From assembly GCF_003334355.1 (NCBI RefSeq), contig NZ_QOWP01000001.1: a stretch of 64,000 bases of DNA. One strand, 5' to 3'. Shown here piece after piece: positions 52,701 to 55,700 of the stretch. Position 1 is the first letter of the stretch. Every line of letters begins with the position of its first letter. The position numbers were made by a program. The stretch is from Escherichia coli. Its GTDB lineage: Bacteria; Pseudomonadota; Gammaproteobacteria; Enterobacterales; Enterobacteriaceae.

Positions 52701-55700
52701 GAGAGCGCCAACAGCCCCAGCAAGGCGCTCACGACATTACTGGAGCCTAACCAGGCGCTATTGCGAATAATGGTGCGAAACGCGCCATCTGCAAACCAAT
52801 GTTTGATGTTAAAACCCGCCAATTCAGCCTGACCTTATCGTTGATAGTAAAAAGTATCCCGCCAGCCTTAAGTTAAACTTCGGCGGTCAGAAACGATGGC
52901 AACCAGAGAAACCGCCTTCTGTGCCTGTTCCAGCACTTCGCTGTAGGGCGCTCTGGAATCAATCTCAAGAATTTTTGTGCCGTTATAGCCAATCGTCGAC
53001 ATAACACCGATTTTGTCCTGCAGCTCGGCATAGTCATGGTCAGGCTTGCGGGAGATGGCAGTCTCAATATCAATCCCCAAACGAATGATTAATTCAGGAC
53101 GGTATTGCGCCATTTGTTGGTATAAACACCGTTCGCGCTGCGCCAGAAACATGCTGATTTTCCCGGTCGCACGTTCGACGCCAATCCCCGGTCCGTCATA
53201 ATAAAAGCCCGAAATTTCAGCCTGCGGGAAGCGATCGCTGACCACCAGAACGCCACTTTGCGCCAGTCGCTGAACCTTGCGTAGATTCGCCATTCTTCGC
53301 AGCGAGAAGCAGTACATAATCACCGCCGCCCATAGCGCTGGAGATTTGGTTTTCATGCTTTGGGTTTTCGAGGATTTGGCCGCCAATCGCCGTTCCAGCC
53401 AGACGCCAACCAACGGCAATCGTTTGATTTTGTCGCCGTCTTCGCCGGAGAGCAGCCCCAGATAGCGCCGCTCGGTTTGCCAGTGTTGTTGCAGCGATTT
53501 CACCAGGTCGGTGGTCAGTGTGGATTTACCGGTGCCATCACACCCGACCACCGCAATCAGCCCCGGAATGTAGTTGGGCTGCGGCGCGGTTGTACTAATA
53601 ACAGTTTGTGTTTGTAGTGCATCCATTCGTTAAATCATCCCCTATCCATTTTGGTGATCAGGAAAGCGCGGCGTGAATTGCGCGTAGTGACGCTTGCAGA
53701 ATTTCATCGGCTGGTTGCCGACCATCCAGTTCAAGGATCTTTGCGCCATTGAATGTCAATTGCGGCGTAACGGCGATTTTTTCCTGTAACGCTGCCAGTT
53801 GGTGGTCAGGTTTACGCGCAAACGCGGTTTGTTCATCAATGCCAAGACGAATCAACAATACGGGCAAATAAGACGCCATCCATTGGTACAGCTTCAACTC
53901 GCGCTGCCTTAACATTTTTATCCAACCGTTACCGCCCGTGGTTTTTGCCAATTGCGGGCCATCAAAGCGAAACCCCGGCACTTCAACCTGCGGGTAGCGG
54001 TCGGTGATGAGCAGAAAGCCTTGCTGGCTTTTACACAACATTTTGCGAAACTTGTACGCCCGCCAGCAGGAAAGCAGATAGATAACCAGTGCAGTAATAT
54101 TGCCAGGCGGTGTTGAGGGCTTTTCGTGCACATGTGCCGCTTTACTTCGCAGATAACGCCCAAAAGGTGCGCCAATAACAGGGAGCTGTGAAATCCATTC
54201 GCCAATTCGCCCGGACGATTGCCCGAGATAAATGTGTTCTGTTGGCATTCTTGCTGCCAGTTCATTTACCAGGCTTGCCGTGAGGGTCGATTTACCTGAA
54301 CCATCACATCCTACAATGGCAATAACATGCACTGGCGTGGAATTAATTATTGACATATTACGTTGATTCACGAAAAACCCGGCAGTAAATAATGTATTGA
54401 ATATTACGTGGTCCGTGCTCAGAATATCCGTTCAACCTTATTGTGACAATGGTTAATTGTGACATTGACCTGAATTACGCTTTCATAAAAACATATTAAC
54501 CAAATAAATATTTTTAATAGATATTTAAATTAAAGGATATATTCATGCAGTCAATAACACCTCCATTAATTGCCGTTATTGGTAGCGATGGTTCAGGCAA
54601 GTCAACGGTGTGTGAACATCTTATTACCGTTGTCGAAAAATATGGTGCTGCCGAAAGAGTTCATTTAGGAAAACAGGCCGGAAATGTCGGTCGTGCAGTG
54701 ACAAAATTACCGTTGATGGGAAAATCCTTACATAAAACAATTGAACGAAATCAGGTGAAAACAGCAAAAAAATTGCCTGGACCAGTTCCGGCGCTGGTAA
54801 TTACAGCGTTTGTCGCCCGTCGCTTACTGCGCTTTCGTCATATGCTTGCCTGTCGTCGTCGCGGGTTAATTGTTCTAACCGACCGTTATCCTCAGGACCA
54901 AATTCCTGGCGCTTACGATGGTACGGTGTTCCCACCTAACGTTGAAGGTGGTCGTTTTGTCTCATGGCTGGCAAGCCAGGAACGTAAAGCGTTTCACTGG
55001 ATGGCGAGCCATAAGCCTGATCTGGTCATCAAACTCAATGTTGACCTTGAAGTTGCCTGTGCACGTAAACCCGACCATAAACGGGAATCGCTGGCGAGGA
55101 AGATTGCCATAACGCCACAGTTAACCTTTGGTGGTGCACAACTGGTTGATATCGATGCCAATCAGCCACTGGAACAGGTGTTGGTTGATGTAGAAAAAGC
55201 GATTACGGATTTTATGACCGCGCGTGGTTATCACTAGTCAAAAATGGAAATGCCCGATCGCCAGGACCGGGCATTTTCAGGAAGGTTAAATCAACTGCAA
55301 TGCTATCCAGTACAGCCCACCAGAAAGAAAAATTGCCGCCGGTAAAGTAAACACCCACGCCATCAGGATGCTGGTTACCGTTTTACGCTGTAACCCACCG
55401 CCGTCCACCACCATCGTCCCTGCTACCGCAGACGAGAGGACGTGTGTTGTGGAGACAGGCATCCCAATATAACTGGCAAGGCCGATAGACACTGCCGCCG
55501 TCATTTGTGCCGCCATGCCTTGCGCATACGTCATGCCGCGCTTACCAATCTTCTCACCGATGGTCATCGCTACACGACGCCAGCCAATCATGGTGCCAAT
55601 GCCGAGCGCCAGTGCTACCGCCATGATGATCCACACCGGAGCGTACTCAATGGTGCTTAACATATCGCTGCGCAGTTTTTTCAGCAGGTTCTGGTCTTCT

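Follow-up and report, generated by a model that had tools for sequence, protein, structure and literature searches.

We asked whether a short direct repeat in the divergent spacer between yghS and yghT is a regulatory unit in its own right. The locus lies in a 64-kb stretch of DNA (here, the window) from an Escherichia coli strain other than K-12, where yghQ-yghR-yghS (minus strand) is followed by yghT (plus strand) and pitB (minus strand) (Table 1). The two copies, ATTGTGACAATG and ATTGTGACATTG, differ at one of their 12 positions, share the 9-mer TTGTGACA, and are offset by 16 bp from start to start. The initial annotation, which had reported the repeat, is partly confirmed on this point: the sequence and the 16-bp spacing are real, and every coordinate that it gave for the two copies was 1 bp too high. 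It had also set the repeat in a 173-bp, AT-rich, divergent spacer, and the open reading frames together with the K-12 annotation bear out the limits of that spacer, as its base composition bears out the AT richness.

Table 1. Coordinates of genes, repeat copies, and predicted elements around the yghS/yghT spacer of the window
Feature	Position	Strand	Description and basis
Divergent yghS/yghT intergenic region	54372..54544		173 bp, 28.9% G+C; open reading frames, K-12 annotation, composition
yghS	53658..54371	-	P-loop protein, weak dTMP-kinase similarity; GTG start at 54371; heads leftward gene string
yghT	54545..55237	+	P-loop paralog; ATG at 54545
Repeat copy 1, ATTGTGACAATG	54440..54451	+	Core GTGACAAT (54443-54450) unchanged across seven genera; anchored alignment
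Repeat copy 2, ATTGTGACATTG	54456..54467	+	Conservation restricted to 5′ part; anchored alignment
Predicted -35 hexamer TTGTCA of yghS(-yghR...) promoter P_A	54444..54449	-	Within copy 1; consensus scan, PWM, conservation
Predicted -10 hexamer TATTCT of P_A	54421..54426	-	17 bp from -35; consensus scan, PWM
Conserved block TAATTGT	54454..54460		-40 to -46 of predicted P_A; overlaps 5′ half of copy 2
Dyad ACAAT-N5-ATTGT	54446..54460		Centre 54453; unique in the 64-kb window
Conserved block ATTGAATATTA in E. coli, ATTGTATATTA elsewhere	54396..54406	-	Reads TACAAT, predicted -10 of alternative P_B; TTCAAT in Escherichia

Chance expectation and conservation of the repeat

For a scan of 64 kb, the direct repeat does not exceed what chance would produce. 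A pair of 12-mers with at most one mismatch and within 40 bp of each other arose in 168 of 5000 dinucleotide shuffles of the spacer (3.4%), and the real window contains nine loci with such pairs, most of them intragenic. The initial annotation had called for a search for the motif; run across the 64-kb window, that search found the repeat motif at chance frequency and without enrichment, with TTGTGACA occurring twice (2.2 expected) and the 12-mer, at up to two mismatches, eight times (6.7 expected). The other promoter region of this gene cluster, at yghO/aasR, lacks the motif, and no second site was found in the window by motif, dyad, or ortholog-derived PWM. An origin of the repeat by tandem duplication was rejected, given that just 12 of the 16 unit bases match and that relatives retain the spacing without the repeat.

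Among 4687 complete E. coli genomes, 3783 carry the 96-nt segment that includes both copies (54405-54500) at an identity of 99% or more, with 100% identity in 32 of 40 sampled rows, but this is of limited weight because the entire spacer is 97 to 100% identical across the species. Position 54467, the last base of copy 2, is polymorphic (G/A) in E. coli, and the G-to-A variant was checked in two genomes. Orthologous divergent yghS/yghT spacers were gathered from 12 genera. Those from Escherichia came from an E. coli reference strain, E. whittamii, E1V33, MOD1-EC7003, and E. albertii; other near spacers came from Citrobacter farmeri, C. amalonaticus, Hafnia paralvei, Pseudocitrobacter (three sequences), and Shimwellia, and further ones from Pluralibacter, two Erwinia species, Sodalis, Serratia, Klebsiella, and Mangrovibacter. 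The alignment was anchored on GTGACAAT, and conserved blocks were scored over the seven genera nearest to E. coli.

Four blocks are conserved across these seven genera: ATTG(T/A)ATATTA (54396-54406), CAGAATAT (54420-54427), GTGACAAT (54443-54450), and TAATTGT (54454-54460). The third is the core of copy 1 and the fourth is the 5′ half of copy 2, and the proposal that this stretch holds a cis-regulatory element therefore gains support, as the most conserved blocks of the spacer fall here. Four of the seven genus-level sequences have TAATTGT exactly, the remaining three depart from it by one or two bases, and a related CTAATTG block is present in Serratia, Klebsiella, and Mangrovibacter. Beyond TAATTGT(G), the anchored alignment shows no further conservation: the GACA of copy 2 varies both among genera and within Escherichia, and this 3′ half is under no detectable constraint. 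In place of copy 2, E. albertii and E. whittamii have TGTGGCA, Hafnia has TGTGGCT, C. farmeri TGTCGTT, C. amalonaticus TAGCGTT, and Pseudocitrobacter TGTCAGC, so that the perfect repeat with GACA is limited to E. coli and two Escherichia species (E1V33 and MOD1-EC7003). Since the outgroup E. albertii has G, as do E. whittamii and Hafnia, the identity of the 9-mers in E. coli is most simply explained by one G-to-A change, and the perfect repeat probably arose via this single change within Escherichia. On this comparison of relatives, the direct repeat is young and lineage specific and is not the conserved entity.

A predicted yghS promoter and its gene cluster

Read on the minus strand, the region runs ACAATTA-ACC-ATTGTCAC-(15 nt)-ATATTCTG and holds the hexamers TTGTCA and TATTCT 17 bp apart, which we designate P_A. 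This arrangement is the sole promoter match toward yghS in a consensus scan and the top PWM match on the minus strand. When the best score is taken from each 235-nt piece of the window, its 9.7 bits reach only about the 90th percentile, and for this reason the case for P_A rests on conservation. Both hexamers are unchanged, at 17-bp spacing, in Escherichia, in the two Citrobacter species, in Hafnia, and in the three Pseudocitrobacter sequences, and Shimwellia retains TTGTCA with a -10 of TATCCT and a 16-bp spacer; the 17 positions between the hexamers vary freely among these genera in the anchored alignment. Fixed hexamers around a drifting spacer are a classic promoter footprint. P_A displays it across the seven genera, where hexamers and spacing are kept while the spacer sequence drifts, and it has further marks of a sigma-70 promoter, namely the hexamers themselves, a spacer of 16 to 18 bp, and a -10 element whose second base is A and whose sixth is T. 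We infer that RNA polymerase uses these hexamers and initiates near 54414, which would leave a leader of ~43 nt before the GTG start codon of yghS, itself conserved (ATG in Pseudocitrobacter).

With roughly even confidence, we propose from these comparisons that the repeat is not a functional unit and that copy 1 is the -35 element of the yghS promoter, with the 5′ half of copy 2 as an upstream block. Copy 1 would supply the -35 of a sigma-70 promoter serving the leftward string yghS-yghR(-yghQ...), the -10 TATTCT would lie 17 bp downstream, and transcription would start near 54414. TAATTGT, at -40 to -46, would most likely be a contact for the alpha subunit of RNA polymerase or for an accessory protein, and its conservation makes it a candidate upstream promoter contact or regulator half-site. 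The repeat would then be two neighboring conserved blocks of a promoter region that share ATTGTG by chance and were lengthened to a 9-mer by a recent single-base change. The stretch is probably an ordinary promoter region. Against P_A as a promoter and nothing else, the eight invariant bases ATTGTCAC together with TAATTGT exceed the needs of a -35 hexamer, and this conservation beyond the hexamer leaves room for a bound protein.

No transcription starts for yghS or yghT were found in the genome-wide studies examined, and Mendoza-Vargas 2009 lists a 5′ RACE primer for yghT without a result. Two genome-wide data sets list yghS as bound by H-NS, and overproduction of SlyA raised the yghS transcript 3.1-fold (PMC5797941); binding of the region by H-NS would explain the scarcity of start-site data. 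A weak FlhDC SELEX peak has also been recorded, with the proposed site inside yghT (PMC9962212).

A second promoter geometry toward yghS, P_B, would place its -35 at a CAGAAT block and its -10, TACAAT, at 54398-54403 on the minus strand. Serratia, Klebsiella, and Sodalis have a well-formed P_B, which in Serratia and Sodalis reads TTGAAC, 16 bp, TACAAT. In Escherichia, the -10 of P_B has decayed to TTCAAT and so has lost the critical A at its second position, and P_A is favored for E. coli because of this decay. If P_B were the true promoter, the repeat would fall between about -50 and -75, a location typical of activator sites.

Transcription from the predicted yghS promoter would run leftward through yghS-yghR-yghQ-...-lptF2-lptG2. 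Non-K-12 strains carry, in the interval from yghO to yghQ, aasR (fatty acyl-AMP ligase), a reductase gene, acpR, and spt, as well as genes for LptG-/LptF-like permeases, a YtfJ-family protein, and a hypothetical protein; these genes are the sphingolipid cluster reported from E. coli B (PMC9386255). Most of the cluster has been lost in K-12, next to IS5. In Serratia, Klebsiella, and Mangrovibacter, yghT directly adjoins spt-acp-reductase-ligase, and the P-loop paralogs therefore belong to the sphingolipid cluster; yghR, yghS, and yghT are the end of the spt cluster that most E. coli strains carry. The yghSRQ-lptF2G2 and yghT units would be the modification and export arm of this cryptic enterobacterial sphingolipid cluster. 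By itself, a probable unannotated sigma-70 promoter before genes without assigned function is of minor importance. Together, the predicted promoter and the short conserved block upstream of it would provide a practical handle on regulation of the sphingolipid cluster.

Rival readings of the conserved block

Another reading, which we regard as a tentative possibility, is that the block is a candidate operator of a dimeric transcription factor recognizing ACAAT-N5-ATTGT. Because TGTGACA is nearly self-complementary, such a dyad can look like a direct repeat. The dyad is found once in the window, and the conserved bases reach past the -35 hexamer. Escherichia, Hafnia, and C. farmeri keep the 5-bp arms without change, and C. 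amalonaticus, Pseudocitrobacter, and Shimwellia differ from them by one or two bases. In E. coli, the dyad extends to a 27-bp quasi-palindrome, ATTGTGACAAT-GGTTA-ATTGTGACATT, with 9 of 11 arm positions complementary, and folding of the dyad gives a symmetric 8-pair stem (-4.3 kcal/mol). However, conservation covers just 5 bp of each arm, and farther out the arms lose their symmetry in other genera; a PWM of the ortholog block yields no second site in the 64 kb, and the yghO/aasR promoter region scores at best -0.2 bits, compared to 34 for the site itself. Furthermore, no regulator gene is conserved beside the locus in the compared genomes, no match was obtained among the E. coli consensus sequences checked, and the dyad was spotted post hoc.

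Were such a factor to exist, it would sit at about -39 of P_A, a position suited to repression or class II activation, or at about -62 of P_B, suited to class I activation, and yghS and yghT could be under joint control. It is doubtful that GTGACAAT-N3-TAATTGT is the operator of a candidate regulator that switches on the divergent yghSRQ-lptF2G2 and yghT units; if it were, the identity of the binding protein would reveal when E. coli makes sphingolipids. The initial suggestion of a regulator other than CRP may hold in this form, with copy 1 as the yghS -35 being the simpler reading.

We consider it improbable that the GTGACAA core is a -35 shared back to back by overlapping divergent promoters, read as TTGTCA toward yghS and as GTGACA (five of six matches to TTGACA) toward yghT. 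Two overlapping hexamers would account for seven of the eight invariant bases, and -10-like hexamers lie downstream of it on the plus strand in Hafnia (GTGACA, 17 bp, TATTTT), in C. farmeri and C. amalonaticus (GTGACA, 17 bp, TAGTAT), and in Sodalis (GTGACG, 17 bp, TATATT with a preceding TG). In contrast, Escherichia, Pseudocitrobacter, and Shimwellia have no -10-like hexamer 16 to 18 bp past either GTGACA (TGACCT, TGCGAT, and CTTGCT), and plus-strand promoter candidates in E. coli are poor at best. The core may thus double as a -35 toward yghT in Hafnia, Citrobacter, and Sodalis, judging by these hexamers, and not in E. coli.

That neither copy is functional, the repeat being an accident of an AT-rich spacer acquired horizontally, is decidedly improbable: the shuffles and window counts are what chance would give, but GTGACAAT and TAATTGT are among the few spacer blocks kept in seven genera despite diverged flanks.

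It is hardly credible that the TGTGA motifs are CRP sites (22-mers centred at 54449.5 and 54465.5) that couple yghS and yghT to cAMP and carbon status. CRP sites are expected to centre near -41.5, -61.5, or -71.5 of a start, and relative to the predicted P_A start at 54414 these two would centre at -35.5 and -51.5. Each copy does hold a perfect TGTGA, and its flanks are A/T rich; a simple weighted consensus score puts both 22-mers among the top 0.06% of positions in the window. Yet the partner half-sites, TTAAT and CCTGA, each match at only two of five positions, with the two key Cs missing from both, and the best core match (7/10) is equaled by 32% of random 173-nt window pieces. The partner halves lack conservation, that on the right of the second site entirely, and TGTGAC is replaced by TGTGGC or TGTCGT in relatives. 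Full-text searching on these genes found no report of CRP binding or of CRP control of yghS or yghT. Of the initial interpretation, the TGTGA half-site, the direct rather than palindromic arrangement, and the idea of a cis-element stand, whereas the repeat as the conserved unit and a coupling to carbon status through CRP gain no support.

Comparison with known regulatory systems

The repeat was checked against consensus sequences for CRP, FNR, the Pho box, matS, SlyA, LexA, the lac operator, CusR/HprR, RcsAB, ArcA, sigma-54, sigma-E, and NikR, as plain consensus strings, which serve as leads and not as database tests; none of them fits the repeat. An RcsAB-like match (10 of 14) sits on the CAGAATAT block, off the repeat, and its second half is poor. 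A structured RNA element was rejected as well (best Rfam E = 0.34; hairpin of just -4.3 kcal/mol). A full-text literature search on 8-mers returned unrelated matches only, one of which pointed to matS. The matS site, bound by MatP, is the palindrome GTGAC-RNY-GTCAC. Here, the two GTGAC copies point the same way at an interval of 16 bp, and even the closest match has 3 mismatches in 12; matS was rejected on this geometry and on chromosome position.

Known direct-repeat binders were checked for phasing, and none fits 16 bp. Binders of the OmpR/PhoB type have periods of ~11 bp and those of the AraC and LytTR types ~21 bp, and all are excluded by the 16-bp period. In the Pho box, direct TGTCA repeats (two 7-bp repeats with an 11-bp period) take the place of the -35 element. 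The locus resembles it in having TGTCAC followed by an A/T-rich tetramer on the minus strand, one copy at the -35 position, and pitB as the next gene; it differs in its 16-bp period, pitB is transcribed from another spacer, and the best match to the 18-bp consensus has six mismatches. With the CRP site, TGTGA-N6-TCACA, it shares a perfect TGTGA half-site per copy, but the copies are direct, lack an inverted partner (inverted partners match at just two of five positions), and are not conserved as a CRP site.

Among operators of dimeric helix-turn-helix proteins, lac O1 begins AATTGTGA, and the phage 434 operator is ACAA-N6-TTGT. ACAAT-N5-ATTGT is likewise of operator size and overlaps a -35 element, whereas its odd spacer, arms of only 5 bp, and lack of a cognate regulator or second site set it apart. 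SlyA sites have the form TTA-N6-TAA, ideally TTAGCAAGCTAA. The repeat sequence TTATTGTGACAA matches five of six fixed bases and so falls short of the full SlyA consensus; a perfect TTA-N6-TAA is present at 54496-54507, 45 bp from the repeat, although matches of this kind in AT-rich sequence are weak evidence. The likeness to H-NS silencing with counter-silencing by SlyA or LeuO, as known for AT-rich acquired genes, lies in the spacer of 29% G+C, in this TTA-N6-TAA, and in a gene, yghS, that is listed as H-NS-bound and SlyA-inducible (PMC5797941). To a sigma-70 promoter, the divergent spacer is alike in its -35 region, with TTGTCA, 17 bp, and TATTCT, the hexamers fixed and the spacer free; the difference is that conservation here continues 1 to 2 bp past the -35 hexamer and into the block at -40 to -46.

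Candidate regulator sites in the yghS/yghT spacer

The yghS/yghT spacer contains a perfect SlyA-type TTA-N6-TAA palindrome, TTAACCAAATAA, which lies closer to yghT; a perfect match to this pattern is present in only 2% of 173-nt pieces of the window. Overproduction of SlyA has been found to raise yghS expression 3.1-fold, and yghS is reported to be bound by H-NS (PMC5797941).

A second candidate is the conserved block TCAGAATATCCGTT, which occupies the same place as the predicted -10 hexamer of the candidate yghS promoter. The RcsAB box has the consensus TAAGAATATTCCTA, with which the block agrees at 10 of 14 positions, its second half matching poorly; an equally good match occurs in only 3% of window pieces.

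Features of the yghS/yghT region and its surroundings (window positions unless stated)
Feature	Position
yghO/aasR spacer motif	43430-43450
Sphingolipid (spt) cluster	about 43800-55237; 3514-14938 in L015
RcsAB-like block	54419-54432
Equivalent of E41 IS1 insertion	54459
SlyA-type palindrome	54496-54507
A/G strain difference	54519
CRP-like 22-mer	56957
pitB-gss direct repeat	56986-57013
gss terminator hairpin	about 57029-57062

Related motifs in other spacers

Another 12-mer direct repeat, ATAAATATTGGA / ATAAATATTGAA, again with a spacing of 16 bp, was observed in the pitB-gss spacer, where it adjoins the gss terminator hairpin, and a CRP-like 22-mer with a core match of 8/10 was also noted. 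The yghO/aasR spacer has AATAATTAACGGTGACAAAC, which is loosely similar to ACAATTAACCATTGTCAC, a minus-strand sequence from the yghS spacer, yet the PWM built from the orthologs gives AATAATTAACGGTGACAAAC a negative score.

Strain variation

In E. coli E41 (L026), an IS1 is inserted within the second copy of the spacer's 12-mer repeat, a deletion has removed yghS and all the sequence beyond it as far as a portion of the YtfJ-family gene, and yghT remains behind IS1. The window carries A (TAATAG) where K-12 and the other strains examined carry G (TAATGG). Over 54300-54620, the closest match among complete E. coli genomes was 99.7% identical, and none was exact.

Sphingolipid cluster membership

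Two published descriptions of the enterobacterial sphingolipid cluster give yghR, yghS, and yghT no role, and PDB holds no sequence relative of their products, whose similarity to dTMP kinase is weak (25 to 32 bits versus a cut-off of 83). All three genes are syntenic members of this cluster (window and sequences L015, L021, L022, and L023). In E. coli, LptF/LptG paralogs and the YghQ flippase are followed by yghR, yghS, and yghT; in Serratia, Klebsiella, and Mangrovibacter, spt-ACP-reductase-acyl-AMP ligase lies directly beside yghT. The three products could be lipid or head-group kinases.
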